Part shown: piece by piece, positions 17,364 through 48,839 of the stretch
Layout of the letters: each line of letters starts with the position of its first letter
Numbering within the stretch: position 1 is the first letter of the stretch
Origin: Gammaproteobacteria bacterium
Lineage (GTDB): Bacteria > Pseudomonadota > Gammaproteobacteria > Eutrophobiales > Eutrophobiaceae
Direction: 5' to 3'
NCBI GenBank assembly: GCA_965221695.1
Contig: OZ244905.1
Location: 762,355 to 826,354 of the forward strand
Length of the DNA: 64,000 nt
Position numbers and translations under genes: made by a program
The notes under the pieces: model-generated
Told to the model about the DNA's origin: nothing
The model's input: the letters and a program-made list of their open reading frames with translations, nothing else
Database searches by the model: none

Positions 17364-18233
17364 TCAGCGGGTCGGCATCAGGCCCATGTCGAATTGCAGG
17401 TGGCTGAACGGCACCGGGATGTTGTAGCGGGCAGCCAGGCCGGCATCGTCGGATTGTTCATAATGGCCTATCAGCGAACTCTTGGTGGCGAACACCGCGT
17501 CTGAGTCCAGATACTCGTCGCCTTCCGAAAATACGTGCGTTGTCAGCGGCTCGTAACCGTCCGCAGAGACGATGAAATGGATATGGGCCGGGCGCATGCC
17601 GTGACGGCTGCTGGTTCGCAACAAATCACCAACCGGTCCGTCAGTGGGTATGGAATAGGATAGCGGTTTTTCCGTGACAAAAGCGTAATTGCCTTGCTCA
17701 TCCGTGGTGAAGATGCCGCGCATATTGTTCTCCGGCATGGTTTGATCCTGCACATCATACGTACCGTTCGCTGCGGTTTGCCAGATGTCCAGCTTTGCTC
17801 CCGCTATGGGATTACCGTCCGGGTCAGTCACCCTGCCCTGTACCAGCGCAATATCTCCACCATAATGCCGCTTGATGATGCTGGCGCCGTTTTCGTATTC
17901 CGGCGCGCCGGGCACGTAAAACGGCCCTAACACTGTGGACTCGGTGCCCTGGCCGGACTTGGGGTGGTTGATCGCATCAACCAGCATGGATACGCCCAGC
18001 ACGTCTGACAACAGGATAAATTCCTGGCGCTTATCGTCGCAGATCTGGCCTGTAGCGGTTAGGAACATGATGGCCTTGAACCATTCCTCTTCCGTCAACT
18101 CCACATCCTTGACAAACGCATGGAGGTGTTTGAGCAACGAGGTAATGATCTGCCTGAACCTTGGATCTTCTGTCTTGGAACCGTATTCTTCCAACACGAT
18201 TTCCGTCAGATTATCGATTGTAAAATCACGCAT
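17364..18233 (-). CDS. Intradiol ring-cleavage dioxygenase (hydroxyquinol 1,2-dioxygenase / catechol 1,2-dioxygenase family)
   Basis: 289 aa. Intradiol dioxygenase motifs GPFY, the Tyr/His iron-ligand region, and RPAHIHF. GGGGAGGAAATC RBS. Confidence 0.85.
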   Translation of the reverse strand: MRDFTIDNLTEIVLEEYGSKTEDPRFRQIITSLLKHLHAFVKDVELTEEEWFKAIMFLTATGQICDDKRQEFILLSDVLGVSMLVDAINHPKSGQGTESTVLGPFYVPGAPEYENGASIIKRHYGGDIALVQGRVTDPDGNPIAGAKLDIWQTAANGTYDVQDQTMPENNMRGIFTTDEQGNYAFVTEKPLSYSIPTDGPVGDLLRTSSRHGMRPAHIHFIVSADGYEPLTTHVFSEGDEYLDSDAVFATKSSLIGHYEQSDDAGLAARYNIPVPFSHLQFDMGLMPTR

Positions 18234-18252
18234 GATTTCCTCCCCGTGTAGT

Positions 18253-18309
18253 ATTCACATGGATGGACAGGATATACAGGATGCTGTCATGTCTTGCATC
18301 CTGTATATC
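18253..18309. repeat. Copy 2 of the 23-bp repeat, fused to a perfect 15-bp-arm hairpin (GGATATACAGGATGC-11nt-GCATCCTGTATATCC)
   Basis: Sits between the DUF1329 stop (18320) and the dioxygenase start (18233). No U-tract follows on the transcribed strand. Confidence 0.6.
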
Positions 18310-18319
18310 CATGTTAATC

Positions 18320-19618
18320 TTAACGCCCTTTTGCGCGCAATGCCTGCACGGTGAAATCTGTTTCTTTAAATGGTTTTTCCGGCAATATCGCCTTGAACTG
18401 CAGGGTCGTGCAGTGCAGCGCCTGGATATCGATCATGGAGACCGCATCGATGATCGGCACGCCCATGCCCCGGTTGGAGGGATGATGCCGGTCCGGGTGG
18501 GAGTAGGCGGCGATGGCGACTTTCCACAGGTTGCCAGGCCTGTCGAAGATGTGGCCATAGACCGGTAACATGGTCTGGGCGTCCAGGTAATAGCGACGCT
18601 TGGACAACGGATGTTGTTTCCAGTAAGGCTCGGCCTCCAGGATATACGCCTTGCGCACGTGCCAGGTGACATTCGGAAAGCAGTTACCCTTGCCGTGGAA
18701 GCCGATGAACCTGAAACCATCGAGCTGTTGCCCCACCTCCTCCAGTTGCTGCTCGTCATGATGGAAGAACGGCAGCAGTACCCAGGTGATGCCTTTATAG
18801 GTCCACTTCTGATCCATGATGCGGCCGTTATAACCTAAAAAGTCCTCGATCATAATGTCACTGCCGAGGAATGCGTCCGTGGTCTGTCCAGACGCCAGGC
18901 GGCGCACACGCCGGTGGCCGGACAGGTACAGCCAGACCTGCTCCGGCTTGGTATCGTCTTCCAGTCGTTGTACCAGCAGTTGCGTCCCGCGCAGGTCGGG
19001 CGGCGCCAGTACTCTCAGGTACAGGCCGTGGTAGATTTCGGACGGATTTTTCGGCATCGACGGAATCGGCTCCTGCACATGCCTGTGCATAAACTTCAGC
19101 GAACTGGCATAGAAGGACAACTCTCTCTCGATTTTGTCATGCCGTATATTCCTGTATTGCCAGTAAAATCCATCCACCTCACCGCTGTCGTAAGAATAGG
19201 TATAGCGCAGGTTCCAGGCCAGCTTGTCCCCTGCCCTGGGATCGTCAAGTTGCGGCTCTCTGGGGAACGGCCGTCCCGCGATGTAATTGTGAATAATCCC
19301 CGGCGCATCGCCGAGTTCGGTTTGATCCAGGTAACGCCTCGTTGCGTCGATATACGCAGCATGCGTGGACATGGATATGACCTCGCCCGTGGTGATGGTC
19401 AAAAACTCATCACTGATCAGGTCCACCAGCTTAGGCGCCAGAATAGGGCGGAATGACTCCACATTTTCTTTTGTGATCACCGTGCCCGGCGCGGGGTTAA
19501 GCGAGGCAACATGTGCCAGGTCAAAGGTGAACGACTCCTCGACCACATCTGCCCTGAGCGCGGCGGTACCGGCCAGAAGACCAAGCAACGATACGCAGAT
19601 AAATCGTCGAGAAGTCAT
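18320..19618 (-). CDS. DUF1329-family secreted protein (paralog 1)
   Basis: 432 aa. Signal peptide. Strongly paralogous to 24278-25585 (RRLASGQTTDAFLGSDIMIEDFLGYN vs RRLATGQTTDAFLGTDIMIEDFEGYN; ALHCTTLQFKA vs AKHCTTGQFKG). Confidence 0.8.
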   Translation of the reverse strand: MTSRRFICVSLLGLLAGTAALRADVVEESFTFDLAHVASLNPAPGTVITKENVESFRPILAPKLVDLISDEFLTITTGEVISMSTHAAYIDATRRYLDQTELGDAPGIIHNYIAGRPFPREPQLDDPRAGDKLAWNLRYTYSYDSGEVDGFYWQYRNIRHDKIERELSFYASSLKFMHRHVQEPIPSMPKNPSEIYHGLYLRVLAPPDLRGTQLLVQRLEDDTKPEQVWLYLSGHRRVRRLASGQTTDAFLGSDIMIEDFLGYNGRIMDQKWTYKGITWVLLPFFHHDEQQLEEVGQQLDGFRFIGFHGKGNCFPNVTWHVRKAYILEAEPYWKQHPLSKRRYYLDAQTMLPVYGHIFDRPGNLWKVAIAAYSHPDRHHPSNRGMGVPIIDAVSMIDIQALHCTTLQFKAILPEKPFKETDFTVQALRAKGR

Positions 19619-19688
19619 GTTTGTCCGCTAATCATTCTTCCGCAGATGATACAGGCTGGCGTAAATGAGTTTTACGGTCTTACACCCG

Positions 19689-21239
19689 CTAATCTGTGGC
19701 ATCTTCGGGCTTTTTCATAAACAGGTTGACATCATGGGGATTGACCAGGTCTCCAACCGTCCAGCCGTTGATGTCGTATTCATCCATACACTGCTGGGCA
19801 AAGTCCTTGAGTTCCTGCTCCAGGCCCGAGGCCTGCGCCGATATCAACGCATCAATGCGGATGTTTTCGTTATTGCCCGAGTAATTGCGTTCATACAGTT
19901 CATGGCGGCCACCGAACTCCGTGCCGATGGCATCCCACAACAGGCGCATGGTCTTGACCCGGTCCTCCGCATCGTGGCCGTAAGAGCCCCGCAGGTATTT
20001 ATCCAGGTAGACTTTCAGCTCCGGCACGTTGAAATCCGTCGCATGGGAGTTCAGGTAGATCAGGCCGCTGGCAACCATGTTCTCGATTAATTCCTTGGCG
20101 CGGGGATAGGCCATCGTCATCAGCACCCGATATACCTGCCCGGCATGGCCGTTCGGCACTTTTGCGCCCTTGAAATCGTCAGGCATGCCGCACATCGCAT
20201 CCGACAAGGCCCAGAACAGGTGGCGCAACACGATCATTTCACCTATCGCCACTTGCACGCCGCGATACCCCTTGGAACCGGTGATCTCCAGGGCCTTCAT
20301 GAACAGACCGGTAATGAAATCAAATTTTACCGCAAGCCGGGTGCAGCCGTGAAAGGCAAAGGTATAACCCCAACCGGAAGTACCCAGGAACGTACTGGCC
20401 GCCTCCATGTCCTGGTAGATAAAGACGTCTTCCCAGCGCATCAGCGCATTGTCCAGAACCAGTATCGCATCATTCTCATCCAGGCGGCTGGACAGCGGGT
20501 TGTCGAACGGGCTGCCCATCACCTCCGCCGCGTACGCGTAGGACGGCCGGCAAATCAGCTTCACCCCCGGCGTGTCCATGCTCAACATGCCGGAAATCGC
20601 AAAACGCTTGTCCTTGACGGGGATGGGTCCGTACTGTCCAAGGAAATTGTAGTGTGTCAGGGCCGACCCGGTCGCCACCACCTTGGCCCCGGAAATGATG
20701 ATGCCCTCATCCGTTTCCCCGGTACAGTGCATGTAGACATCCTCGATCTCTTCATGGGGTTTATGCCGGTCCACCGGGGGATTCACCAGGGCATGGTTCA
20801 GGAACGGCACACTTTCCTGGGCGCGCCGGTACCAGTTCAGGGCATTGCCGGCATAGTCACCGAAATACTCCTGGTTGAATCCCAGGGTCAGCATCAGGCT
20901 GGCCTTGTAATCGGGGGTACGGCCCATCCAGCCGTAAGTCATGCGCGCCCACTGGGCGATGGCCTCGCGCTGGGCGATCACATCTTCGCGGCTCCTGGCG
21001 ACCTTGAAGTAAGGATGGGTAAAACCGCCGTTGCCGGTATCGGTATCGGTACGCAGGTGCGGAAATTGCTCTTCATTATGCAGCGCATCGTAGAGGCGCG
21101 CCATCATCCTTGCGGGGTTGCGGAAGGCCGGGTGTTCGGTCACGTCGCGGACCCGCTCCCCGTAAATCCAGATCTCCCGGTCGTCTTTCAGGTTCTCAAG
21201 AAATTCAGCGCCGGTATAGGGGCGAATATCGTTATCCAC
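19689..21239 (-). CDS. 4-hydroxyphenylacetate 3-hydroxylase (HpaB)-family FADH2-dependent aromatic monooxygenase, oxygenase component
   Basis: 516 aa, the family-typical length. Family-level assignment by global resemblance to HpaB / chlorophenol / nitrophenol two-component monooxygenases. Confidence 0.8.
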   Translation of the reverse strand: MDNDIRPYTGAEFLENLKDDREIWIYGERVRDVTEHPAFRNPARMMARLYDALHNEEQFPHLRTDTDTGNGGFTHPYFKVARSREDVIAQREAIAQWARMTYGWMGRTPDYKASLMLTLGFNQEYFGDYAGNALNWYRRAQESVPFLNHALVNPPVDRHKPHEEIEDVYMHCTGETDEGIIISGAKVVATGSALTHYNFLGQYGPIPVKDKRFAISGMLSMDTPGVKLICRPSYAYAAEVMGSPFDNPLSSRLDENDAILVLDNALMRWEDVFIYQDMEAASTFLGTSGWGYTFAFHGCTRLAVKFDFITGLFMKALEITGSKGYRGVQVAIGEMIVLRHLFWALSDAMCGMPDDFKGAKVPNGHAGQVYRVLMTMAYPRAKELIENMVASGLIYLNSHATDFNVPELKVYLDKYLRGSYGHDAEDRVKTMRLLWDAIGTEFGGRHELYERNYSGNNENIRIDALISAQASGLEQELKDFAQQCMDEYDINGWTVGDLVNPHDVNLFMKKPEDATD

Positions 21240-21275
21240 TAAATATGACCTCTGTGATCTTTGTGTCCTCTGTGG

Positions 21276-23513
21276 CTAGCTCACCTTCCGCGCCTTGTAC
21301 TCCTCCGGACTTTCCGCGGTTTTGTATTTTTCCACTGCGATCTTCCGATGCAGGATGACCGGTTGTTCCGCGACCGGCGGTGATGCTATCTCCGCAGGGT
21401 AACAACCCATGGTTTGCTTAGCCGGGTCCATGTTGGTGCGTTTCGAGAACTGGCGCCGGTTGGTACGCTCGGCGGGGATAATATTGCCTTCACTGTCGCT
21501 GTCGAGGTCCCACCACCACTTCTTCACCGGGTTGATCAAACCGTTGCCCACCACGTCATCCAGTTTTGCGATCCAGCTTCGGGTAAACGGCAGGTTCATC
21601 GCCGCCCACAGGAACGGCCTCTCAGCCAACACCCCCTCAATGTTCCAGGGGCAGGTCTTCATACAGCGGCCGCACAGCGCGCCGGCGGCGTTGGTAATCC
21701 GATAACGCGCGCATTTTTCCACGTCCGGCTTCCACATTTCATAGCCGTTGAACATGATTTTGTCGCCGTAGGGGATCGCCTGGCACGGGCACTCCCGCGC
21801 GCACTTGGTGCATTTCTCACAAAAATCCTGCAAGCCGAAATCGATCGGTTTATCCGGCAATAACGGCAAATCAGTCGTGATAATACCGGACTTGAAGCGC
21901 GGACCCACGTAGGGATTCAACACCAGTTCACCGATGCGGCTCAGTTCGCCCAGCCCCGCTTCCAGGATGATAGGAATATGCAGAACATCCTGGTCCATCA
22001 CGCTGTGGCCCCGGGCGGAATACCCCAGGGAGCGGATATGGGCGCCGACAACACCGCCGATGAGCTGGGCGCGCAAGTAGGCGCGCATGCTTTGTGCGCC
22101 ACTGATCCAGTCATCCCCGCTGGCGCCTTCCATGGTCTCGTAGCCCTGGTCCACCAGGATGGCGATTCCGTACTTGTGGTACGGCTTTATCTCCGAACCG
22201 TCGGTATCGTGGGAATACCAGGCATAGTCGGGCAGCTCGCAGATGCCCACCATGTCCGCTCCCATGTAATACAGGGCGGCCTTCACCGCCTCGGCGTTTT
22301 TTTTCGGATCATCGGTACCGGGGGCAATAGCATCCGCTTCCTTGCCATACTGCAGCGGCACCATTGCACCCAGCGGCGGTATCATCGCATGGCCGTATGG
22401 CGACTTGGTGATCATGCGAAAATTGTGCAATTCCTGCTGCGGTTTATCACCGAGATCGCCCAGGGCAGCGCGGATAAACATATCGTGACGTTTGGGAACC
22501 CGCGGCACGTTCGGCCGGTCAATAAACGTAGTGGTGGTGTCCTGCGTTTTCAGTTTTTCCATCGGATAAGGACCCAGGCGGAACGGCCTGTTTTTGAACA
22601 GCTTGCCCTTGTAGCCCGGTCGCGCCCCGCCCATTCCCAGCCACCAGCCCGGGCCATGAGACTTCAGCGATTGCATCATCCCGCGTTGCGCCAGCGGTTT
22701 ATCGGCCGCCAGCTCCATGGTTGTCGAGACCACGGCCATACCGAATTGATCCCCAAGGTAGGGGTTGGTGACCTTGCCACCGCCGTTGGCGCCGGTTACC
22801 TCTCCCAGGCCGCTGCAAAGCAACAGGTAATCGAGATCGAGGTCGCTTGCCGATGCGGTGTGCAATGTCGCCTCATATCCCAGAAAACGGATGTAATTCA
22901 CCATCACCGCCGCCGCTTCGGCCACTCTTAGCGCTGCCCGCTGTGGCTGGGTACCGACCAGCCAGGTTTCGCTCTCAGCATGAGATTCCGGTTCCCTGGT
23001 GTACTCGAACAGTAGGACCAGCGCATAGCCATGACTGAAATCCTTGTTCGCGTCCTCCATGGAACGCTGCCAGGCTTCCTGGCCTTCCCGGACGGTAAAC
23101 TCTGCCATCGCATTGGCCGCCGACCCGGCCTGGTATTCTTTTTCCTGCGCTTGCGCCAGCGACTCATTGATGATGGGTTGTGCCAGTATCGCTTGTTCGG
23201 GTATCGCGCAGGTCGCCGCCATACTGACATCGAGGTTGTAACAACCGGCTTTCAGGTGATTGGCGCGTTCTTGCGGGTCTGACGGAATGGGCGCCTGCTT
23301 GGGCGCCGGGTCGCCCAGGCGCATGCGGTCGAACAGGTCGAGGTATTCACGGAACGCGCCGGCCATGGATTCCGGATTGCCGGGCGTAACCGCTTCCCGC
23401 GTTCGTTGCCCTGCAGCCGGTGAATAGTCGGGTATGGAATTACCGCGTGCCAGCCGTTCCAGCGGGAATGGACCCATGTGCATGGCACGATGTTTATGGG
23501 AAAAGAGTCGCAT
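21276..23513 (-). CDS. Reductive dehalogenase-family protein, long 'catabolic/aerobic' type (NpRdhA-like; cobalamin + two [4Fe-4S])
   Basis: About 745 aa. C-terminal Fe-S motifs FCEKCTKCARECPCQAIP (CxxCxxCxxxCP) and CGRCMKTCPWN (CxxCxxxCP), the arrangement diagnostic of RdhA/QueG-type enzymes. The long N-terminal extension fits the self-contained catabolic RdhA class. No TAT signal or RdhB anchor is present. The start is ambiguous (TTG at 23522, ATG at 23513/23483/23477). Confidence 0.6.
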   Translation of the reverse strand: MRLFSHKHRAMHMGPFPLERLARGNSIPDYSPAAGQRTREAVTPGNPESMAGAFREYLDLFDRMRLGDPAPKQAPIPSDPQERANHLKAGCYNLDVSMAATCAIPEQAILAQPIINESLAQAQEKEYQAGSAANAMAEFTVREGQEAWQRSMEDANKDFSHGYALVLLFEYTREPESHAESETWLVGTQPQRAALRVAEAAAVMVNYIRFLGYEATLHTASASDLDLDYLLLCSGLGEVTGANGGGKVTNPYLGDQFGMAVVSTTMELAADKPLAQRGMMQSLKSHGPGWWLGMGGARPGYKGKLFKNRPFRLGPYPMEKLKTQDTTTTFIDRPNVPRVPKRHDMFIRAALGDLGDKPQQELHNFRMITKSPYGHAMIPPLGAMVPLQYGKEADAIAPGTDDPKKNAEAVKAALYYMGADMVGICELPDYAWYSHDTDGSEIKPYHKYGIAILVDQGYETMEGASGDDWISGAQSMRAYLRAQLIGGVVGAHIRSLGYSARGHSVMDQDVLHIPIILEAGLGELSRIGELVLNPYVGPRFKSGIITTDLPLLPDKPIDFGLQDFCEKCTKCARECPCQAIPYGDKIMFNGYEMWKPDVEKCARYRITNAAGALCGRCMKTCPWNIEGVLAERPFLWAAMNLPFTRSWIAKLDDVVGNGLINPVKKWWWDLDSDSEGNIIPAERTNRRQFSKRTNMDPAKQTMGCYPAEIASPPVAEQPVILHRKIAVEKYKTAESPEEYKARKVS

Positions 23514-23580
23514 TTCAATCAATCGCCAATGTTATGATTCGATGTTCGATAACGGGTTTGGATGCTGCCCCTGTTGATCT

Positions 23581-24174
23581 TTATGTTTTTTGCAGTCCGA
23601 GTTCGCGCAAGTAGTCATGCACGAAATCAATCCGGTCATTGCCCCAGAATATCTGGTCGCCTTGCACAAATGTCGGCACGCCGATCACACCGGCTTCCTG
23701 CGCCTCCTGCCAGTTGTCCTCCAGGACCTTCTGCCTGGCCGGATCATCCAGTGACGCACTGAACTCATCGGGGTCTAGGCCACACTCACGGGCGATGTCC
23801 ACCAGGGTATCAAGCTGTCCAATATCCTTACCCAGCGCCCATTCGGTATCCATCACCCGGTTGATATAGTCTCGCAGGCAGCCTTTTTCTTCGGCCAATA
23901 GAGAACCAACACCCGCCGGAGTCGGATCAGTGGTAATGGGTGGAGGGTTGCAAGGGATATTCATCCGTTTTGCCCAGCGGGCAACATCCTGGCGGGTAAG
24001 CGGGATTTTGACCTTTGCCCGGTCCGGCGCCGAGCGGCCGTTCCATCCTGCCAGCGGCCGCCAAACCAGGTTGACATGGTAGTCATCCACCAGGCTGAAC
24101 ATGGTCTTGCTGGCGAGATAACAATAAGGACTTCGAAAATTGAAGAAAAACTTTAAATCAACAGACTCCCTCAC
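23581..24174 (-). CDS. DsbA-like thioredoxin-fold protein, 2-hydroxychromene-2-carboxylate (HCCA) isomerase / kappa-GST-like family
   Basis: 197 aa. N-terminal hallmark DLKFFFNFRSPYCYLA (FxFxSPxxYL). C-terminal VPTF...G...FWG. Confidence 0.7.
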   Translation of the reverse strand: MRESVDLKFFFNFRSPYCYLASKTMFSLVDDYHVNLVWRPLAGWNGRSAPDRAKVKIPLTRQDVARWAKRMNIPCNPPPITTDPTPAGVGSLLAEEKGCLRDYINRVMDTEWALGKDIGQLDTLVDIARECGLDPDEFSASLDDPARQKVLEDNWQEAQEAGVIGVPTFVQGDQIFWGNDRIDFVHDYLRELGLQKT

Positions 24175-27813: not shown

Positions 27814-27840
27814 AAAATATCGATATTTTTTCATTATAGC
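27814..27840. promoter_or_regulatory. Putative operator/promoter element (site A): AAAATATCGATATTTT perfect palindrome followed by TTTTTTC...TTATAGC, 45-70 bp upstream of the DUF1302 start
   Basis: 16-bp perfect palindrome. The ATATCGATATTTTTTC(N)TTATAGC string is shared with site B (38200-38245). The core is shared with site C (4463-4474). Confidence 0.5.
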
Positions 27841-31319: not shown

Positions 31320-31401
31320 GTTTCCCCTAAATTAACCCTCATAAACAGCGCGCTGCGCATCCTGGCCGCATGTAATTGTTGACATAATCCAAATCACGCC
31401 C

Positions 31402-31510
31402 CCGTACCACTCGTGCGAAACACCACCTTACCACTCCCGCAAAACACCAACTTACCACTCCCGCGAAAGCGGGAGTCCAGTCAATTACTGTGTCGCCCGC
31501 AGGGCGACCC
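31402..31510. repeat. REP-like compound hairpin repeat, copy 3
   Basis: CCACTCGTGCGAAACACC, CCACTCCCGCAAAACACC, CCACTCCCGCGAAAGCGGGAGTCCAGTCAATTACTGTGTCGCCCGCAGGGCGACC. The ~50-nt core is nearly identical to 8041-8095. Confidence 0.8.
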
Positions 31511-31523
31511 GTTATTATAGTTT

Positions 31524-32312
31524 TCAAACCATCCGAAAACTGACCTTCCCCAAGTCCTGGAAGCGCACATTGATCGTATCGCCTTTGTCCAGAGCAACCG
31601 CCGCCGTGATTCCCCCGGTCATTATGAACGTCCCTGCGGGTATGGTCTCACCGCGCGCAGCCAGCATGTTCGCCAGCATCGCCACGCTCAGGGCAGGATG
31701 CCCCAACACTGCGGCGCCGGCGCCGGTCTCAACCACTTCTCCGTTTTTCTCCATCACCACCCCAAGGGCCGGCAAGTCCAGGGAGTCCGCGCCACGCAAG
31801 ACACTGCCGACGACAAAGCCTGCGGCGGAAGTATTATCGGCAATGACGCTCTTCAGGTCAAAACGAAAATTTTCATAGCGGGAATCGATGATCTCCAACG
31901 CCGCCGTAACAAAATCAACGGCTTGCAATACCTGGCCGATATGGCATCCGGGACCGGCCAGTTCCGCTTTTGTCACGACAGCCACCTCCGCTTCCACGCG
32001 CGGGTGGATAAACGCTGAGCAGTCAATCTCAGCGCCATCGGCGTAACCGCCGGTAGCAGGCAGGAAACCGTATACCGGATCGGACACCCCCATCTGCCGC
32101 ATCTTGGCCTGGGAGGTCAGGCCCATTTTCAGGCCGGCGATGCGGATGCCGCGTTCTTCTTTGCGCCGGCGGATCTCGTACTGGATGGCGTAGGCGTCCT
32201 CCCAGTCCAGTTCCGGGTAGTCATCGGTAATCTTCGTTACCGCTTGCCGGTTGAGTTCGGCATTCTCCAGCCGCTCGGCCAGTTGCCTGATGGTTTTTTG
32301 ATCCAGCGTCAT
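31524..32312 (-). CDS. 4-oxalocrotonate decarboxylase (XylI/DmpH-like)
   Basis: 262 aa. Collinear high similarity to XylI ([10 protein letters not shown]...GLKMGLTS...[21 protein letters not shown]...[27 protein letters not shown]). Position at the end of the meta operon. Confidence 0.85.
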
Positions 32313-33349
32313 TGCACTGCCTTTATTTCACGCCGCGCCCGCGCCATGTTCAGCGCAACGTCTTCGATCATGTCTTCCTGGCCGCCGATGGTCTTCATCT
32401 TCCCCAGCTCGACCAGGATGTCGCCCGAAGGCAGCTTGTATTTTTCACCGACGCGCTTCGCGTGCAGCAGGAACGAAGAGTAGACACCGGCATAACCCAT
32501 GATCAACGAGTCACGGTCGACCCGGATCAACTGGTCCATTATCGGCACCACCACATCTTCCGCAACGTTCATCAATTTGAATACATCCACGCCGGTTTTG
32601 ACGCCCATGCGGTCCAGCACCGCGTTGAACACCTCAAGCGGCGTGTTGCCGGCGCCGGCGCCCAGCCCCGCGGCGGAACCGTCAATCCGGTCGGCGCCCG
32701 CTTCGACTGCGGCCAGTGAATTGGCAATGCCCATTGCCAGGTTATGGTGCCCGTGAAAGCCAATCTCGGTATCGGCTTGCAGGCCGGCGCGCAATGCCCC
32801 GATGCGGGCCGTGACATCATCCGGCAGCATATAGCCGGCAGAATCGGTGCAGTAAATGCAGTTGGCGCCATAGGATTCCATCAATTTGCCCTGTTCAAGC
32901 AACTGTTCCGGTTCCACCATATGCGCCATCATCAGGAAACCGACGGTATCCAGGCCCAGTTTTCGAGCTGAACTGATATGTTGTTCCGAGACATCCGCCT
33001 CGGTGCAATGGGTCGCGACGCGGATGGTATGGACTCCACAATCCCGCGCCATGTTCAAATGATCCACGGTGCCGATACCCGGCAACAGCAAGGCCGACAC
33101 ATTTGCCTGCTTCATACGCGGCGTGACCGCTTGCAGGTACTCTTCATCGGAGCTGGCAGGAAAGCCGTAATTGATGGAGGCGCCACCCAGGCCATCGCCA
33201 TGGGTCACTTCGATAAGGTGGACGCCTGCGTCATCCAGCGCGGAAGCGACATCGATCATCTGCTCAGTCGTGATCTGGTGGCGCTTGGCATGCATCCCGT
33301 CGCGCAGGCACATATCATGCAGTTTTACTGTTTTTCCGTTTAGATTCAT
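32309..33349 (-). CDS. 4-hydroxy-2-oxovalerate aldolase (DmpG/MhpE/BphI-like)
   Basis: 346 aa. DRE-TIM N-terminus [13 protein letters not shown]...[13 protein letters not shown]. 4-nt overlap with the decarboxylase gene. Confidence 0.9.
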
Positions 33350-33392: not shown

Positions 33393-34301
33393 CTAAGCGT
33401 TGGCCGCATCCAGGCGCAATGCGCCGTTGATGATTTCTTCCGCGAACATCTCACCGGTTCGCAGCGCCGCGGCGGTCATGATGTCCAGGTTGCCCGCGTA
33501 ATCCGGCAGGTAATCTCCCAGACCCTTCACCTCCATGAAGATGGAGACGCGCCGGCCGTCGAATACCGGGCCGTTTTTCAATTGGTAGCCGGGCACGTAC
33601 TTCTGCACTTCCCGGATCATGTCGTGGACGGATTTGCGGATAGCATCCTGGTCGGGATCGTCCTGCGTCAGGCAATGGATGGTGTCGCGCATGATCAGCG
33701 GGGGTTCAGCAGGGTTGAGGATGATGATGGCCTTGCCGCGTCCGGCGCCGCCTACCCGTTCCAGCCCGTTGGCCGTGGTGCGGGTGAACTCATCGATATT
33801 CTTGCGGGTGCCCGGGCCGGCGGATTTCGACGCGACAGTCGCCACGATCTCTGCGTATTCCACCGGTTGTACCCTGCTTACCGCGGCTACCATCGGGATT
33901 GTCGCCTGGCCACCGCAACTGACCATGTTCACGTTGGTCTCCTGTTTGCCGACATGTTCCTGCAGGTTTACGGGCGGCACACAATACGGGCCGATGGCAG
34001 CCGGCGTCAGGTCGATGACCAGCACACCCCGTTGTTCCAGCTTCCGGGAGTTCTCCGGGTGGACCGAGGCAGAGGTCGCATCGAAGGCGATCCTGATACC
34101 GTCTTTTTCAATATGTTCGAGCAACGCATCCACGCCTTCGTGGGTGGTCTTCAGGCCGCTCGCGCCGGCCTTTGCCAGGCCGTCCGAGTTCGGGTCGATT
34201 CCCACCATCCACACCGGGTTGATGCGATCACTGCGCAGCGCCTTTATCATCAGGTCCGTGCCGATATTGCCGGAACCGACCAAAGCAGCATTAACTTTCA
34301 T
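33393..34301 (-). CDS. Acetaldehyde dehydrogenase (acetylating) (DmpF/MhpF/BphJ-like)
   Basis: 302 aa. [27 protein letters not shown]-binding start. Catalytic Cys region [12 protein letters not shown]. Confidence 0.9.
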
Positions 34302-34327
34302 ATTCAGTTTACCCCTGTCCTCTATCC

Positions 34328-35119
34328 TCAGTTGAACCGCACCGATGCGTTGCCGATTCCGCCGACAGCCAGGGTCATTACATCTCCGGGCACGACGGGG
34401 TGCAGCGGCACCAGGGAACCGGACAGGATCACTTCACCCGCTTCCAGCTTGATACCGAACTCGCCCAGGGTGTTCGCCAACCAGGCCACACAGTTTACTG
34501 GTGAACCCAGCGCCGCGGCGCCGGCGCCGGTGGCGATAACTTCACCATTTTTGGTATGTACCATGCCGCAGGTCACCAGGTCCACGGCGCGCGGGCTCAC
34601 GGCCCGATCTCCGAGCAGGAACGCCCCGCAGGACGCGTTATCGGCAATGGTGTCTTGTATCTTTATCTTCCAATCCTGAATACGGGAATCCACGATTTCA
34701 AAACAGGGCATCACACATTCCGTGGCGCGCAGCACCTCGGCATTGGTGATACCCGGACCATCCAGGTCGTGTTTCAGGATGAACGCGATCTCACCCTCTG
34801 CCCTGGGCTGGATCATTTCCGCGCTGATGGGTACTTCGTCGCCGTCGTTGTAGACCATGCGGTCGGTCAGGTAACCGAAGTCCGGCTGGTTGACCTGCAG
34901 CATATTCATAACCGCCTTGCTAGTAACACCAATCTTCTTGCCGATGATTTTCTCGCCGTCATCCAGGCGCCGTTGCAGTAATTGCAGCGAAATGCGGTAG
35001 GAGTCCTCAATGGTGATATCCGGTTCCTGGTCTGTCAGTGGCTCGATGGTCTTGCGCGCGCGCAGGCAATCGTACAAGGTATTGCCATAAGACAGTATTT
35101 TTTCTTCAGTCAGGCTCAT
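34328..35119 (-). CDS. 2-oxopent-4-enoate hydratase (XylJ/DmpE/MhpD-like)
   Basis: About 263 aa from the ATG at 35119. Close similarity to XylJ ([28 protein letters not shown]...[47 protein letters not shown]). Confidence 0.85.
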
Positions 35120-35148
35120 TATTTCTGTCACAGTGTCGGATTGAATTC

Positions 35149-36639
35149 CTACAGTTTCACACACACGTTGCGCATCTCGGTGTAGAACTCAAGTGAGTGT
35201 ACACCACCTTCGCGGCCTATGCCCGATTGTTTGGAGCCGCCGAACGGAGTCCTGAGATCGCGCAGGAACCAGCAGTTGACCCAGGTGATGCCGACATCAA
35301 TGGCGGCGGCGACCCGGTGCGCGCGGGATGCATTCCCGGTCCAGATCGCCGTTGCCAGGCCGTAGCGCGTGTCATTGGCCATCGCAATCACTTCGGCCTC
35401 ATCGTCAAAAGGCTGTACATGGCAGCAAGGACCAAAGATCTCCTCCCGGATGACCGGCGATGATTCAGGCAGGCCCGTCCAGATGGTCGGTTCCACCCAG
35501 AAGCCGCCGGCCAGATCGTCGTGCACTTGCGGAATACCGCCGCCGGTTACGACCTGCGCGCCCTCTTCCCTGGCCTTTTCATAGTAGGACAGCACTTTTT
35601 CCCGCTGCTGCCGGCTAATCATCGGCCCCAGAGTGGTGGTTGCCAGTTCCGGCTTGCCGGTTGCCAGGTTTTCGGCGCCCAGTCTGAGCCGGTCCACGAA
35701 TTCATCGAATACCGGGCGCTCCACGTAAACCCGTTCCGTTCCCAGGCAGACCTGGCCGCAGTTGGCGAATACCGAACGCATGGCCCCTTCCAGGGCCTTG
35801 TCCATATCGCAGTCGGCAAACACCACGCCCGCGTTTTTGCCGCCCATTTCAAAGGAGACATCGCGCAGCCCTACGGCTGCGGCTTTCATGATTTGCGAAC
35901 CGGTGGTTGTCTCACCGGTAAACGTGATCGCGTCCACGCCCTGGTGCGTGGTCAGGTACTCGCCGGCAGATTCCGGCCCGAAACCATGCACGACATTGTA
36001 TACGCCAGCGGGAATACCCACCGCATTCATCACCTCACCCAACAGGGTCGCGGTCGCCGGAGTCTCTTCGGACGGCTTGACCACGACCGCATTACCACAG
36101 GCCAGCGCCGGACCGACCTTCCAGGTCATCAGTAACAGCGGCAGGTTCCAGGGACAGATCACGCCGATGACCCCCTTGGGCACGCGCAGCGCATAATTCA
36201 ATGCGCCGGCGCCGTCCGGCGTGTCCATCATGAAGGATTCCGCCGGCACATTCTTGATCACATCGGCAAATATCTTGAAATTGGCCGCGCCCCGGGGTAT
36301 ATCCACATGCCGCGCGAGCGACCAGGGCTTGCCGGTATCAAGACACTCCGCTTCGACAAAATCATCGAACCTGGCGTTGATGCCATCGGCCAGCTCATAC
36401 AGTAAAGCCACGCGTTGCTCTACGGTCAGTGAACCCCAAGGGCCTTCGAGAGCGGCCCGCGCCGCTTCGACTGCCGCATCGACTTCATCACGACCCGCTT
36501 CATGGACCTGCGCATAGGCCTCCCCCGTCACCGGGTTCAGCGTGTCAAACATTCTGCCGCCGGCAGATCCGACAAACTCGCCGCCGATAAAATGGCAGAA
36601 CGGCGACCCGGATACAACCTGTTTTACTTGAGCATGCAT
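35149..36639 (-). CDS. 2-hydroxymuconic semialdehyde dehydrogenase (XylG/DmpC-like NAD+ aldehyde dehydrogenase)
   Basis: About 496 aa from the ATG at 36639 (GGAG RBS). ALDH motifs and XylG-like segments PDGAGALNYA, VICPWNLPLLLMTWKVGPALACGN, FGGSKQSGIGREGG, C-terminal ...EFYTEMRNVCVKL. The track ORF is over-extended to 36666. Confidence 0.88.
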   Translation of the reverse strand: MHAQVKQVVSGSPFCHFIGGEFVGSAGGRMFDTLNPVTGEAYAQVHEAGRDEVDAAVEAARAALEGPWGSLTVEQRVALLYELADGINARFDDFVEAECLDTGKPWSLARHVDIPRGAANFKIFADVIKNVPAESFMMDTPDGAGALNYALRVPKGVIGVICPWNLPLLLMTWKVGPALACGNAVVVKPSEETPATATLLGEVMNAVGIPAGVYNVVHGFGPESAGEYLTTHQGVDAITFTGETTTGSQIMKAAAVGLRDVSFEMGGKNAGVVFADCDMDKALEGAMRSVFANCGQVCLGTERVYVERPVFDEFVDRLRLGAENLATGKPELATTTLGPMISRQQREKVLSYYEKAREEGAQVVTGGGIPQVHDDLAGGFWVEPTIWTGLPESSPVIREEIFGPCCHVQPFDDEAEVIAMANDTRYGLATAIWTGNASRAHRVAAAIDVGITWVNCWFLRDLRTPFGGSKQSGIGREGGVHSLEFYTEMRNVCVKL

Positions 36640-36669
36640 TTTTTTCTGACTCCTATTACACCCCAATAT

Positions 36670-36838
36670 TATTCCCGCTTAAGCGGAAAGCCAGCTAACA
36701 AAGTATCGCCTGTCAGGCGATACGCTATCATACTGGACTCCCGCTTACGTGGGAGTAGTACGAGCATCGCTCCTACTCCAGTACCATTCCCGCGAAAGCG
36801 GGAATCCAGTGAAACAAACCGTCGCTTCAGCGACACTA
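36670..36838. repeat. REP-like compound hairpin repeat cluster, copy 4 (fills the HMSD-GlcG intergenic region)
   Basis: TTCCCGCTTAAGCGGGAAAG, GTATCGCCTGTCAGGCGATAC, CTCCCGCTTACGTGGGAG, TTCCCGCGAAAGCGGGAATCCAGTGAAAC, CGTCGCTTCAGCGACACTAT. Confidence 0.8.
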
Positions 36839-36840
36839 TA

Positions 36841-37269
36841 TTATTCCGGGGCCAAATACCCCAGCGCATATTCGGCTATTTCCCCATCCTGTTGTTCCGA
36901 AGCGCCGGAAACGCCTATCGCGCCGATACGGCGCCCGCCAATCTCAATCGGCGCCCCACCACCACAAACCATCAACCGGTCAGCATTGGGGAGACCGATT
37001 CTGCACGCCGGCGACAGGGAATCCAATACTTCTCCCCATTTCGATGTCGGCATGCCGAAACTCATAGCCGTGTAAGCCTTGTTGATCGCCAGGTCAACGG
37101 AATGAAACGCCGAACCCGGCATGCGCAAAAACGCGGCAAGATGCCCGCCGCTGTCCACTACTGCGACATTGACTTTCACGCCTAACTCCTCCGCCCGCGT
37201 TACCGCAGCCTGAACCAGTGCGTGAGCCGCTTCCCAGTGGATGCTGCCCTGATCTACCACCACTTTCAT
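36841..37269 (-). CDS. GlcG/HbpS-family (DUF336) haem-binding-like protein
   Basis: 142 aa. Family-typical length and the pattern ...AVVDSGGHL.AF.RMDGA...A..KA.TA... 4-nt overlap with the upstream GST gene. Confidence 0.65.
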   Translation of the reverse strand: MKVVVDQGSIHWEAAHALVQAAVTRAEELGVKVNVAVVDSGGHLAAFLRMPGSAFHSVDLAINKAYTAMSFGMPTSKWGEVLDSLSPACRIGLPNADRLMVCGGGAPIEIGGRRIGAIGVSGASEQQDGEIAEYALGYLAPE

Positions 37270-38054
37270 CTGTTCAGATGCGCTTGTATCTTGCGCCAGG
37301 GGGCCTGCCCCTTGTGCTTGAGTTCAGCCATTTTTTCCGCAGAAAAATCAGCCGCGACCCCAACCTGGTAAGACGGCCGGTCAACGCAACGCGCATACCA
37401 GTCAGCGACCCGTTTGCGCGACTGGTACCAGTCTGCCCAGCCGAATTGGAACAGGGTTTGAAAATACGGGGACATGGCCGCGTCCGCCAGCGAGAACCGA
37501 TCGCCCGCAAGCCAATCCTGGGTTTCCAGCGTGCGTTCCATGTCGGCAATGGTCTTCTCGTAGGTCGCCACTGCGTCGACGATATCGGGCGCATCATAGC
37601 CCATCTTCAGCAGCCGCCTCTGCCGCTCTCGCCGGGGTTTCTCGACAACCCGGTCAATGACAGCATTCATCTCCGCTTCTGAAAGCATTTTGAGCTTGTC
37701 CGCCATAACCAGCGGCCATTGCAACGCGCCGCAACTCGGGTGCACCTTGATGTCAATGTGTTTCATCCACAGACGCATCTGCGCGCTATGGTAGGGATTG
37801 TCCGGACGCATATCCGGTTCAGGAAACTTGTCCTGCAGGTACTCGCAGATGATGGAGGATTCGATTACCGACCTGCCATCGTCGACCAGGGTCGGCACCA
37901 CGCCCAACGGGTTCAGCTTGAGATAGTCCGGCGCAAGATTTTCCTTCTCCGCCAGTTCCACGTGACGCTTTTCCCAATCCAGGTCTTTTTCTGCCAGTAC
38001 GATGCGCACCTTCTGCGAACAGGGCGACATGGGATGAGTGTATAATTCAAGCAT
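37266..38054 (-). CDS. Glutathione S-transferase-family protein (Cys-containing N-terminal thioredoxin-like domain)
   Basis: 262 aa. N-terminus LELYTHPMSPCSQKVRIVLAEKDL (GST_N with an active-site-region Cys). C-terminal alpha-helical GST_C-like domain. Confidence 0.75.
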   Translation of the reverse strand: MLELYTHPMSPCSQKVRIVLAEKDLDWEKRHVELAEKENLAPDYLKLNPLGVVPTLVDDGRSVIESSIICEYLQDKFPEPDMRPDNPYHSAQMRLWMKHIDIKVHPSCGALQWPLVMADKLKMLSEAEMNAVIDRVVEKPRRERQRRLLKMGYDAPDIVDAVATYEKTIADMERTLETQDWLAGDRFSLADAAMSPYFQTLFQFGWADWYQSRKRVADWYARCVDRPSYQVGVAADFSAEKMAELKHKGQAPWRKIQAHLNR

Positions 38055-38186
38055 TATGGGTTCGCCTCATCGTTATCGTCATCGTTAATTCCTGCGGCCC
38101 GCGCGTATGTTCTTCGGGCTTATGTTCTTGGCGCTTGTGCTGCCAGTGGATTGCATCTGATATTATGGATATAATTTATTTTATCG

Positions 38187-38245
38187 TTGTTGTCAAATAA
38201 TATCGATATTTTTTCGTTTTGTCGATATTTTTTTATAGCATATTG
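38187..38245. promoter_or_regulatory. Putative operator/promoter element (site B) in the GST <-> GntR divergent region: TTGTTGTCAA + AATAATATCGATATTTTTTC + GTCGATATTTTTTTATAGC
   Basis: TTGTTGTCAA at 38187-38196 (its reverse complement contains TTGACA for the minus-strand operon). ATATCGATAT at 38200-38209. A second TCGATATTTTTTT at 38222. TTATAGC shared with site A. Confidence 0.5.
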
Positions 38246-38333
38246 TTTTACTGTAACGCCAGTTGAGCATGAACTTATTCAAAAAACCTCACAGACCCCG
38301 CTTTTCACCCTTCACAACAGCCTTGCCGGGTAA

Positions 38334-39014
38334 TTGACGATGCGCGCCAAAACGCTGGTTGAAGCGTCTTATGACCGGATCCGTTCCGATATTATCGCGG
38401 GGAAACTGGCGCCGGGTTCCAAGCTGCGCATTGAGGAGTTGCGGGAAGACTATAACATCGGCGCAAGCCCGTTACGCGAGGCCCTGAACCGGCTGGCCGG
38501 CGAAGGCTTTGTCACCGCGGAAAGGCAGCGAGGGTTCAAGGTTGCGCCGGTTTCTACAGAGGACCTGAAAGACCTGAGTCGCATGCGGGTGATGCTGGAA
38601 TGCCAGGCGTTGCGCGACAGTATCAGGAACGGCGATGATGAATGGGAGGTAAACCTGGTCGCATCCCACCACCGCCTGCAAAAGGCGGAACAGCATTACG
38701 GTAAGAACCTGGCGGAATGGGAACAACGCAACGATGAATTCCACGAAGCCCTGGTGGCGGCCTGCGGCTCAACATGGTTACTGCGCTTGCGCCACCTGCT
38801 CTACGAACAGCATAAGCGCTACCGTTTCATCGCGATACTGTCCCAACAGGAAGGGCGGGATGTTCACCAGGAACATCGCGAGATACTGGAAGCGACTCTG
38901 GCGCGTGACATCAACGCGGCCTGCAAAGCCACGCAACAACATATACAGCAGACGTTGGACACCAGCATCCGGGTATTCACTGAGCTGGAAAAAAACAGCC
39001 CCCTCTCCGTATAA
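38334..39014 (+). CDS. GntR-family transcriptional regulator (FadR/FCD subfamily)
   Basis: 226 aa. N-terminal wHTH (AKTLVEASYDRIRSDIIAGKLAPGSKLRIEELREDYNIGASPLREAL), then a helical FCD-like effector domain. Divergent from the catabolic operon. The start may be the ATG ~6 nt downstream of the track TTG. Confidence 0.85.
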   Translation: MTMRAKTLVEASYDRIRSDIIAGKLAPGSKLRIEELREDYNIGASPLREALNRLAGEGFVTAERQRGFKVAPVSTEDLKDLSRMRVMLECQALRDSIRNGDDEWEVNLVASHHRLQKAEQHYGKNLAEWEQRNDEFHEALVAACGSTWLLRLRHLLYEQHKRYRFIAILSQQEGRDVHQEHREILEATLARDINAACKATQQHIQQTLDTSIRVFTELEKNSPLSV

Positions 39015-48836: not shown

Positions 48837-48839
48837 CCT

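Follow-up and report, generated by a model that had tools for sequence, protein, structure and literature searches.

The 64,000-nucleotide stretch of DNA analyzed in this study (referred to as the window) spans positions 762,355–826,354 of the forward strand of contig OZ244905.1 (GCA_965221695.1) from a Gammaproteobacteria bacterium of the Eutrophobiaceae, which is uncultured and apparently sponge-associated. It contains a 21-kb gene cluster in which a homolog of the reductive dehalogenase (RdhA) of Nitratireductor pacificus pht-3B (NpRdhA) is combined with homologs of an HpaB-family monooxygenase and an intradiol dioxygenase, the genes of a lower meta-cleavage pathway and a quartet of envelope transport genes. 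The cluster consists of 16 consecutive, intact open reading frames (ORFs) that run on the minus strand from position 38054 to position 17364 (Table 1). The ORF map thus agreed with the original prediction made from the sequence, and the domain calls of that prediction were right as well. All 16 ORFs had a significant family assignment in Pfam and NCBIfam profile searches. The combination had not been recognized as a described operon, and our literature search likewise found no description of it. The cluster is real, conserved and apparently co-regulated.

Table 1. Features of the cluster and its surroundings in the window.
Feature	Position	Strand	Basis and remarks
Operator palindrome AATATCGATATT (4462–4475) upstream of VanA-like Rieske oxygenase gene (4603–5727)	4462–5727	+	Pfam Rieske and VanA_C
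REP-like palindromes	8043–8058; 12705–12802 (12705, 12787); 31459–31474; 36673–36803		Dispersed in the window
TonB-dependent receptor, second	14994–17336	+	Pfam; strain-variable; converges on the dioxygenase gene
Hydroxyquinol-1,2-dioxygenase-type intradiol dioxygenase	17364–18233	-	Pfam Dioxygenase_N/_C
DUF1329/LolA-like protein, copy b	18320–19618	-	Pfam PF07044; between HpaB and dioxygenase across the clade
HpaB-family two-component flavin monooxygenase, oxygenase component	19689–21239	-	Pfam HpaB_N and HpaB, 274 and 199 bits
NpRdhA-type catabolic reductive dehalogenase, without reductase domain	21276–23522	-	TIGR02486 and NpRdhA structures; 748 aa; probable ATG 23513
Kappa-GST/2-hydroxychromene-2-carboxylate-isomerase-like DsbA-fold protein	23581–24174	-	Pfam DSBA
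DUF1329/LolA-like periplasmic protein, copy a, AmeB-like	24278–25585	-	Pfam PF07044
DUF1302 outer-membrane protein, AmeA-like	25616–27769	-	Pfam PF06980; AmeA in PMC6394551
Internal promoter-operator in the RND–DUF1302 gap	27814–27838	-	TATAAT 27838–27833, then palindrome AAAATATCGATATTTT 27829–27814
HAE3-family RND inner-membrane transporter, AmeD-like	27934–30333	-	Pfam MMPL
BNR/Ycf48-like beta-propeller protein, AmeC-like	30330–31319	-	Pfam PSII_BNR
XylI/DmpH 4-oxalocrotonate (2-oxo-3-hexenedioate) decarboxylase	31524–32312	-	TIGR03218, 420 vs. 350.6 bits (cut-off)
XylK/DmpG 4-hydroxy-2-oxovalerate aldolase	32309–33349	-	TIGR03217, 551 vs. 286 bits
XylQ/DmpF acetaldehyde dehydrogenase, acetylating	33393–34301	-	TIGR03215, 468 vs. 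282 bits
XylJ/DmpE 2-oxopent-4-enoate hydratase	34328–35119	-	TIGR03220, 428.6 vs. 408.8 bits; 263 aa, ATG 35119; start matches relatives' length
XylG/DmpC 2-hydroxymuconic semialdehyde dehydrogenase	35149–36639	-	TIGR03216, 861.8 vs. 693 bits; 496 aa, ATG 36639; relatives 496 aa
HbpS/GlcG-like (DUF336) protein	36841–37269	-	Pfam PF03928, 134.7 bits
Glutathione S-transferase (GST), first cluster gene	37266–38054	-	Pfam GST_N/GST_C
Two candidate operator copies in the GntR/GST divergent region	38199–38230		AATATCGATATT, and TTGTCGATATTT with one mismatch
GntR/FCD-family regulator	38334–39014	+	Pfam GntR and FCD; divergent from the GST gene
TonB-dependent receptor, first	39035–41329	+	Pfam Plug and TonB_dep_Rec; co-directional with GntR, 21-bp gap

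Most junctions between the 16 genes are overlaps or gaps of no more than about 100 bp. The GST/HbpS-like, XylK/XylI and BNR/RND pairs overlap by 4 bp each. Three gaps are longer: XylG is preceded by 201 bp, BNR by 204 bp and DUF1302 by 164 bp. The G+C content is even throughout the cluster, ranging from 0.53 to 0.59. The gaps before XylG and BNR hold TCCCGC-N4-GCGGGA palindromes resembling repetitive extragenic palindromic (REP) elements, of which seven were found in the window against 0.4 expected; they are clustered in intergenic gaps, two of them inside the cluster. The relatives have no such palindromes at these two positions, and in the relative L082 XylI overlaps BNR. The two repeat-rich gaps (31320–31523 and 36640–36840) were considered as scars of module insertion and were rejected as such, because the palindromes are dispersed and the corresponding junctions of the relatives are short or overlapping.

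The homolog of RdhA scored 209.4 bits against the NCBIfam model TIGR02486, whose cut-off is 160.35 bits. It matched the NpRdhA structures 6zxu and 4ras over its whole length with an E value of 1e-176 (aligned query residues 2–107 and 160–745). Similar to NpRdhA, it carries an N-terminal vestigial duplicate of the cobalamin-binding domain, which identifies it by alignment as the type of approximately 700 amino acid residues. A vestigial N-terminal cobalamin domain, a length of about 700 residues and a monomeric form are features of catabolic RdhAs, most of which also carry a C-terminal reductase domain (PMC10463259). The polypeptide in the window, however, ends where NpRdhA ends and has no C-terminal phthalate-dioxygenase-reductase domain, which places it in the truncated subclass. 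Its two 4Fe-4S motifs, CekCtkCareCP and CgrCmktCP, are both intact and aligned with their counterparts in NpRdhA, and Pfam Fer4_16 and Fer4_7 matched residues 568–628 with scores below the gathering thresholds. No RdhB membrane anchor gene adjoins the RdhA gene, whose neighbors are the DsbA-like and HpaB genes, and no twin-arginine signal was seen by eye in the aligned N-terminus, where no signal-peptide tool was run. By sequence, the protein is a catabolic reductive dehalogenase of the NpRdhA type. Look-ups of its exact sequence, read from the TTG or from the ATG start, had no match on record.

Residues S422, M423, Y426, K488, R552, F291 and F310 of NpRdhA are conserved in the homolog. In NpRdhA, Tyr426 is the proton donor, Ser422, Lys488 and Arg552 bind the hydroxyl group, and Lys307 forms a salt bridge with the benzoate carboxylate at the mouth of the active site (PMC7565698). 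As the catalytic residues are kept, the machinery for ortho-halophenols appears to be intact. Five residues near the ligand differ from those of NpRdhA (F290M, K307L, P311R, A419G and N452V). Given the differences at K307 and the other near-ligand positions, the preferred para substituent is probably not that of NpRdhA.

The RdhA and HpaB genes are 36 bp apart. The HpaB homolog scored 629 bits to the Photorhabdus structure 4oo2 and 590 bits to E. coli HpaB. Comparison with TcpA, HadA and HnpA had been suggested along with the original prediction; TcpA, HadA, TftD and NpcA scored only about 87–99 bits (TcpA/HadA, about 98 bits), so that a monooxygenase of the TcpA/HadA/HnpA type was rejected on score and the enzyme was placed close to E. 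coli HpaB instead. It also fell below the cut-off of the HpaB-2 equivalog TIGR02310 (671.4 vs. 885.2 bits). The residues aligned to R113, Y117 and H155, which we take to be the phenol-binding triad of E. coli HpaB, are kept. The loop aligned to residues 207–217, which presumably binds the para substituent in E. coli HpaB, has a different sequence and is one residue shorter than that of the aligned solved chain. A metagenome scan with the HpaB homolog found six loci, three of them in the same clade. In L086 (694–14109), a marine metagenome contig, a 69% identical HpaB homolog lies amid a cluster of the polycyclic aromatic hydrocarbon type with four alpha and three beta subunits of Rieske dioxygenases, a reductase, a gene resembling that of 2-hydroxychromene-2-carboxylate (HCCA) isomerase, a hydrolase and a short-chain dehydrogenase/reductase. 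The context in L086 suggests that this HpaB subfamily is not tied to hydroxyquinol dioxygenases.

The intradiol dioxygenase scored 239–288 bits to the solved PnpC, hydroxyquinol and 6-chlorohydroxyquinol dioxygenases and at most 155 bits to catechol 1,2-dioxygenases. It failed every NCBIfam catechol or chlorocatechol equivalog. The residues equivalent to Y164, Y197, H221 and H223 of 1tmx, which we assume to be the iron ligands, are conserved. Thus, the dioxygenase is, as judged from its sequence, of the hydroxyquinol type. In L014 (12296–19958), the HpaB-DUF1329-dioxygenase block is followed by a second HpaB gene and two more intradiol dioxygenase genes.

HpaB and a hydroxyquinol dioxygenase alone suffice for the catabolism of hydroquinone or resorcinol, and the pocket of the RdhA homolog has the five substitutions listed above. 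The homolog might therefore be a relic or reduce another group, in a cluster degrading hydroquinones, resorcinols or phenolic metabolites of sponges and algae. We consider such a role outside dehalogenation quite unlikely, as the TIGR02486 cut-off is passed, the match to NpRdhA is full-length, both Fe-S motifs and the catalytic Tyr, Lys, Arg and Ser are intact and the ratio of nonsynonymous to synonymous substitution rates (dN/dS) of RdhA is 0.08. Moreover, all catabolic RdhAs so far characterized act on ortho-halophenols (PMC10463259). The original reading of the locus as a catabolic island for halogenated or hydroxylated aromatic compounds is well founded, given the match of the 748-residue protein to NpRdhA and the retention of the residues for phenol-hydroxyl binding and proton donation.

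All five lower meta pathway proteins, XylG, XylJ, XylQ, XylK and XylI, scored above the NCBIfam equivalog cut-offs. The GST encoded by the first gene of the cluster has the LigF beta-etherase as its best solved relative, at only 88 bits. Its orthologs (62–64% identical) adjoin RdhA in L018, L025 and L036. The HbpS-like gene lies between GST and XylG in L081–L083. For the DsbA-fold protein, the best solved relative is the HCCA isomerase 2imd, with whose FLSPFSY the N-terminal FRSPYCY aligns. A CxxC thiol oxidoreductase was considered for this protein and rejected, as it has no CxxC and possesses the Ser motif of HCCA isomerases and kappa-GSTs. Homologs of the DsbA-like gene adjoin RdhA in L019, L028, L029, L035 and L036. 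BphK, PcpC and LinD provide analogies for GSTs in dehalogenation or detoxification, and the GSTs of the cluster may similarly act on halogenated quinones or ring-fission products.

The BNR, resistance-nodulation-division (RND), DUF1302 and DUF1329 genes form a contiguous quartet, which by sequence belongs to the AmeABCD family. The best NCBIfam match of the RND protein was the HAE3 model TIGR00921 (127.8 bits, under the cut-off of 351.9 bits), and the transporter is 92–96% identical across the clade. AmeABCD of Castellaniella defragrans serves in tolerance to or export of hydrophobic growth substrates (PMC6394551), and the DUF1302, DUF1329, BNR and RND genes form a co-fitness group in random barcode transposon-site sequencing (RB-TnSeq) work. 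Similar to AmeABCD, the quartet unites DUF1302, DUF1329, a COG4447 BNR protein and an HAE3-type RND pump, all encoded side by side within a catabolic island for substrates of hydrophobic nature, and a phenol hydroxylase/catechol 2,3-dioxygenase (C23O) cluster of Zoogloea likewise holds DUF1302 and DUF1329 genes. Different from AmeABCD, however, the order is BNR-RND-DUF1302-DUF1329 instead of DUF1302-DUF1329-BNR-RND, the quartet is split by an internal regulated promoter and an additional DUF1329 paralog lies between HpaB and the dioxygenase. The quartet probably handles hydrophobic phenolic substrates, either in efflux and tolerance or in trafficking.

GntR orthologs that are 82, 73, 62 and 48% identical are likewise found at this divergent position in L081, L082, L083 and L021, respectively. 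When the intergenic regions between GntR and GST were aligned for the window, L081, L082 and L083, a block containing ATATCGATAT twice proved to be invariant. A second site lies in the RND-DUF1302 gap, where AAATATCGATATTTT is found six bases after a -10-like TATAAT. In nine genomes, among them L015 and L083, the core TATA and the AAATATCGATATTTT columns of this site do not vary, and the flanks vary freely. The exact 10-mer palindrome occurs at the orthologous RND-DUF1302 position in 16 loci, and L020 also has it 155 bp upstream of RdhA. The window contains eight occurrences of the motif ATATCGAYA, one of them intragenic, against 0.61 expected. Because the same invariant palindrome, AAATATCGATATTT, is present at the GntR/GST promoter and at the internal promoter before DUF1302, the cluster appears to be a single regulon made up of two or more transcription units. 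Such invariance is a strong phylogenetic footprint, left by a single repressor at no fewer than two promoters, and the GntR protein is inferred to bind there. It would act through AAATATCGATATTT on both the first promoter and the internal promoter, the latter driving DUF1302, DUF1329, the DsbA-like gene, RdhA, HpaB, the second DUF1329 and the dioxygenase. A generic sigma-70 scan was set aside after returning 12 promoter-like sites compared with 12.1 in shuffled sequence. In the HbpS-XylG gap, two terminator-like hairpins on the minus strand might attenuate transcription; this gap is only 24 bp in L082 and 121 bp in L081.

The operator palindrome also stands about 130 bp upstream of the VanA-like Rieske oxygenase gene, near a promoter-like TTGTTGTCAA that resembles the element at the GST promoter, so that this gene is a candidate for an outlying part of the regulon. 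An enzyme freeing the phenol hydroxyl of methoxylated bromoaromatics by O-demethylation would fit such a regulon, which is speculation. A 92-residue ORF with a 2Fe-2S ferredoxin domain (3303–3581, minus strand) lies near the VanA-like gene, as do genes for an arylsulfatase-like sulfatase and a GMC oxidoreductase (5840–7435 and 8163–9716), which might have phenolics masked by sulfate or other groups as their substrates.

The order DsbA-like-RdhA-HpaB-DUF1329-dioxygenase is kept in 14 other species-level genomes (L001–L012, L014 and L034). The best match is L001, a gammaproteobacterial metagenome-assembled genome (MAG) with 96–98% DNA identity over the cluster, and the RdhAs of the other 13 genomes (L002–L012, L014 and L034) are 82–91% identical to that of the window. 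The upstream order XylK-XylI-BNR-RND-DUF1302-DUF1329 is also kept in these genomes wherever the contig extends that far. Moreover, GntR divergent from GST-HbpS-XylG-XylJ-XylQ is conserved in L081 and L082, the two genomes inspected for that side. For the 15 scorable genes, dN/dS ranged from 0.04 to 0.18 against 9–11 clade genomes, with dS of approximately 0.8–1.5 (about 1); where a gene was seen only in L081 and L082, its value comes from this pair. By these ratios, purifying selection acts on the scored genes, the orphan Xyl genes among them. The dN/dS of XylJ was disregarded, as it was confounded by matches to its paralog XylI in loci without XylJ; true XylJ orthologs are 81–90% identical. 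The gene order has outlasted near-saturating synonymous change. The synteny survey that had been proposed with the original prediction hence found an order recurring at dS of about 1, which is more than chance.

The cluster was originally described as bracketed by the GntR regulator gene and by TonB-dependent receptor genes at both ends; the bracketing by receptor genes holds for this window but not for the lineage. An 81% identical ortholog of the receptor next to GntR adjoins GntR in L081, and it is absent at that position in L082 and L083. At the other end, the receptor is swapped in L001 for a non-homologous receptor despite the near-identity of the cluster DNA. In L002 (17275–19531), L007–L012 and L014, the 3' neighbors of the dioxygenase gene encode a family III CoA-transferase and a MaoC-like dehydratase, where the window has a TonB-dependent receptor. 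The left receptor is a replaceable cassette, since its body (approximately 15500–17370) lacks DNA homology to positions 16350–18300 of L001 and its protein is only 48% identical, with DNA on either side that is 96–98% identical to L001.

Scanning one genome per species identified 378 loci with RdhA homologs. More distant homologs are present in the sponge symbionts Poriferisodalis and Entotheonella. Among the genomes with the conserved order, L009 is APA_bin_93, and MAGs with the APA prefix come from the sponge Aplysina aerophoba. This sponge produces bromotyrosine alkaloids. L034 (RHO3_bin_19) is probably from Rhopaloeides odorabile of the same data set.

Comparison with more distant loci points to a composite origin. 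In L083, a sister lineage whose XylG is 77–79% identical, GntR is divergent from GST-HbpS-XylGJQKI-BNR-RND-DUF1302-DUF1329, and this unit is directly adjoined by DmpR-hydrolase-DmpKLMNOP-ferredoxin-C23O. No RdhA was found in the 21.5 kb of L083 that were fetched, which end inside DUF1329. In L021, whose RdhA is 65% identical, GntR is divergent from C23O-XylG-XylI-BNR-RND, with phenol hydroxylase and RdhA genes upstream. The original prediction had allowed for an unconventional wiring of the cluster, which these two loci make unnecessary: the unit stands beside dmpKLMNOP, ferredoxin and C23O genes in L083, and C23O heads the GntR operon in L021. RdhA lies beside DmpR and phenol hydroxylase genes in L020, L023, L033 and L045, with C23O in L023 and L033 too, and it is adjoined by quartet genes and GSTs in L018 and L036. 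The identities of these distant genomes that independently associate RdhA with such genes (L018, L020, L021, L023, L033, L036 and L045) were 60–67%. In L019, L028 and L035, a maleylacetate-reductase-like iron-containing alcohol dehydrogenase (Fe-ADH) gene and a DsbA-like gene are near RdhA. RdhA is directly 3' of a two-subunit 2-oxoacid:ferredoxin oxidoreductase in L025 (6428–9481), L036 (6959–9936) and L062 (6958–9935), which makes this oxidoreductase a plausible candidate for the physiological electron donor of truncated catabolic RdhAs. Finally, in L015, a member of the wider clade, the cluster ends with RdhA and has no HpaB or dioxygenase; an FAH-family gene comes next, and the genes beyond it are unrelated.

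From these arrangements, the unit of GntR and the divergent GST-HbpS-XylGJQKI-quartet genes is inferred to be ancestral. Because this operon occurs in the sister lineage with phenol hydroxylase and C23O genes, the RdhA-HpaB-dioxygenase block would be a lineage-specific addition. Likewise, the unit beside dmpKLMNOP/C23O in L083 and the C23O-headed operon in L021 suggest that the supercluster grew by accretion of modules. The simplest history starts from a GntR-controlled operon of meta-pathway and quartet genes fed by phenol hydroxylase and C23O, to whose 3' end the DsbA-like gene and RdhA were added, followed last, in the subclade of the window, by the HpaB-DUF1329-dioxygenase block. In L081 and L082, the only clade genomes showing that side, the phenol hydroxylase/C23O module is no longer adjacent.

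The occurrence of the modules apart from each other, namely the L083 unit with phenol hydroxylase and C23O and the L015 RdhA without HpaB or dioxygenase, would also be expected if the RdhA-HpaB-dioxygenase block had merely landed beside an unrelated, self-contained operon and the two halves served different substrates; the incompleteness of both ring-cleavage routes fits such a history as well. However, the internal promoter for the DUF1302-to-dioxygenase half carries the invariant operator of the first promoter, and synteny is kept at dS of about 1. Moreover, distant genomes again place RdhA, in varying arrangements, by quartet genes, GSTs, phenol hydroxylase, C23O and XylG, and this recurrence argues for a functional rather than an accidental linkage. 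We therefore regard a historical juxtaposition as unlikely. That the 16 genes form a composite catabolic regulon, in which a halophenol front end has been added to one ancestral operon, is the reading that we consider rather probable. The ancestral operon would comprise the GntR/FCD-controlled GST, HbpS-like and XylG, J, Q, K and I genes, the latter being the dehydrogenative lower half of the meta pathway, followed by the AmeABCD-type quartet. The front end gained at its 3' end would comprise the kappa-GST-like protein, the NpRdhA-type dehalogenase, the HpaB-type hydroxylase, the second DUF1329 protein and the hydroxyquinol-type dioxygenase.

In the composite regulon, a cytoplasmic, oxygen-tolerant B12/Fe-S dehalogenase would first strip bromine ortho to the phenolic hydroxyl, drawing its electrons from a ferredoxin system that is unlinked. 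Its likely substrates are natural bromophenols or phenols derived from bromotyrosine. The HpaB-like enzyme, supplied with FADH2 by an unlinked reductase, would then hydroxylate ortho to the hydroxyl group, which would turn para-hydroxylated or para-halogenated phenols into hydroxyquinol. Next, the intradiol dioxygenase would open the ring of hydroxyquinol, and an unlinked reductase would be needed for the resulting maleylacetate. Phenols lacking a para substituent would yield catechol, from which XylGJQKI could be reached only via a C23O encoded elsewhere.

Searches with tblastn and Pfam found no C23O, phenol hydroxylase, maleylacetate-reductase-like Fe-ADH or 2-oxoacid:ferredoxin oxidoreductase in the 64-kb window. 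No match to a 4-oxalocrotonate tautomerase or, with an E. coli HpaC query, to an HpaC-type flavin reductase was found there either, which is a weaker negative, and the XylT ferredoxin and the hydrolase XylF had no match in the window. The absence of C23O, maleylacetate reductase and flavin reductase that had been noted for the cluster therefore extends over 64 kb, with the same reservation for the flavin reductase. In contrast, the claim that two complete ring-fission logics co-exist did not hold, as the intradiol route lacks maleylacetate reductase and the meta route lacks the dioxygenase, the tautomerase and the hydrolase branch.

Several points weigh against the composite regulon as described. 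Partner genes of every branch are absent from the 64 kb, including the ferredoxin and its reductase, the flavin reductase, maleylacetate reductase, C23O and tautomerase. No closest homolog of the L083 C23O could be placed in the clade genomes, which is a weak test as contigs were listed only per exact sequence. The differing loop of the HpaB homolog makes its product regiochemistry uncertain. Common descent might by itself account for synteny within the clade. Every step of the proposed flow is drawn from homology and gene context.

A C23O and a maleylacetate reductase are missing from the 10-kb flanks of the relatives as well as from the window, and the Xyl genes, being under strong purifying selection, need a source of substrate. 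Both observations would be accommodated if HpaB hydroxylated twice, from phenol to catechol to pyrogallol, and the dioxygenase produced 2-hydroxymuconate that enters at XylI. A hydroxyquinol-accepting intradiol dioxygenase also turns pyrogallol into 2-hydroxymuconic acid (PMC9204233), and the entry of pyrogallol-derived 2-hydroxymuconate into the meta pathway was proposed as feasible (PMC6628648). XylG, however, would be superfluous on that route and is equally conserved, no tautomerase was found in the window (although none was found in the fetched stretch of L083 either), the sequence of the dioxygenase is unremarkable within the hydroxyquinol group, a second hydroxylation by the HpaB homolog would have to be postulated and C23O may lie elsewhere in the 3–5-Mb genomes. 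We thus give this rewired pathway little credence. It is similarly doubtful that the intradiol dioxygenase replaced a lost C23O, so that debromination, double hydroxylation and the conversion of pyrogallol to 2-hydroxymuconate for XylI would all be united in one GntR regulon. If true, this would be a natural hybrid of ortho-type fission and a meta-type lower pathway and an aerobic sink for host-made bromophenolics of sponges.

The composite regulon, as proposed here, can be compared with several known systems. Similar to the bhb bromoxynil cluster of Comamonas sp. 7D-2, which encodes BhbA, it has a catabolic, non-respiratory RdhA inside an aerobic aromatic-degradation cluster, in which the debrominated phenol would proceed to oxygenolytic ring cleavage and the organohalide would serve as a carbon source (PMC10463259). 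Different from the window, bhb leads to 4-carboxy-2-hydroxymuconate semialdehyde, which is read as a protocatechuate 4,5-cleavage route; the window has a truncated NpRdhA type with an HpaB-type hydroxylase, a hydroxyquinol-type dioxygenase, a catechol lower meta pathway and the quartet. With NpRdhA (4ras, 6zxu), the RdhA of the window shares a vestigial and an active cobalamin domain, two 4Fe-4S clusters and the lack of a reductase domain; no redox partner is linked to it in the window, and the five near-ligand residues differ.

Another RdhA, JtRdhA, allows E. coli W to grow on 3-bromo-4-hydroxyphenylacetate when expressed in it (PMC10463259). The native Hpa pathway of E. coli W is presumed to be the route for the debrominated product. 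In both cases ortho-debromination would feed an Hpa-type hydroxylation, and in the window the two enzyme types are natural neighbors. By analogy, this engineered strain sets a direct precedent for coupling a dehalogenase to a pathway of the Hpa type. However, no Hpa-type downstream genes are present in the window, and the HpaB homolog is below the HpaB-2 cut-off. The Hpa pathway of E. coli continues via extradiol cleavage of homoprotocatechuate (HpaD–HpaI).

The tcp, had, hnp, cph and npc pathways also pair a two-component monooxygenase of the HpaB superfamily with a hydroxyquinol 1,2-dioxygenase. In these pathways, the halogen para to the hydroxyl group is removed oxidatively. They differ from the window in that they encode maleylacetate reductase and, in most cases, flavin reductase but no B12 dehalogenase, and their monooxygenases are only distant relatives of the HpaB homolog. 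The order XylG-J-Q-K-I is that of the dmp and xyl operons of Pseudomonas sp. CF600 and pWW0. Different from those operons, the window has no ring-cleavage dioxygenase of the pathway, XylT, XylF/DmpD or XylH/DmpI, the control is by GntR/FCD and not by XylS or DmpR, GST and the HbpS-like gene lead and the quartet follows. Catabolic RdhAs in aerobic aromatic pathways, pathways with HpaB-superfamily enzymes and hydroxyquinol dioxygenases, dmp/xyl operons and AmeABCD are already known. The gene combination, the single GntR regulon, the modular exchange of back ends and the presence in a gammaproteobacterial lineage with sponge MAGs are new.

Other features of the window lie apart from the cluster. 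Two small, overlapping minus-strand ORFs at 3606–4140 (115 and 67 residues) resemble, by eye, an antitoxin and toxin of the HicB/HicA kind and had no NCBIfam match. Between 41344 and 45130, the minus strand encodes a VIT and von Willebrand A protein of 768 residues, two small ORFs without a family match and a sigma-70 factor of the extracytoplasmic function type. A low-G+C island at 46000–50000 (0.39–0.47 vs. approximately 0.56) contains a 749-residue ORF (46145–48394) without a Pfam or PADLOC match, directly upstream of a type I restriction-modification system with HsdM, HsdS and HsdR (49563–57525), in which M78-peptidase/RmrA-like and DUF4411 genes lie between the S and R genes. Finally, two tandem ApbA/PanE-like ketopantoate reductase paralogs are located at 59146–62314 by HMGL-like (homocitrate/isopropylmalate synthase type) and M24 peptidase/creatinase-like genes.

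In the literature found, debromination in sponges was attributed to the anaerobic Desulfoluna. The cluster would place oxygen-tolerant, B12-dependent debromination and aerobic ring cleavage in a gammaproteobacterial group that includes sponge MAGs, and it would be a natural counterpart to the engineered route of JtRdhA in E. coli W. It also suggests candidate partners for the truncated catabolic RdhAs, whose context is poorly known, namely the kappa-GST-like protein, the GSTs and, in relatives, the 2-oxoacid:ferredoxin oxidoreductase. Moreover, the DUF1302/DUF1329/BNR/RND quartet gains a regulatory and catabolic context with a candidate operator, and the cluster and its relatives provide a clear case of a dehalogenase front end joined to differing aromatic back ends.

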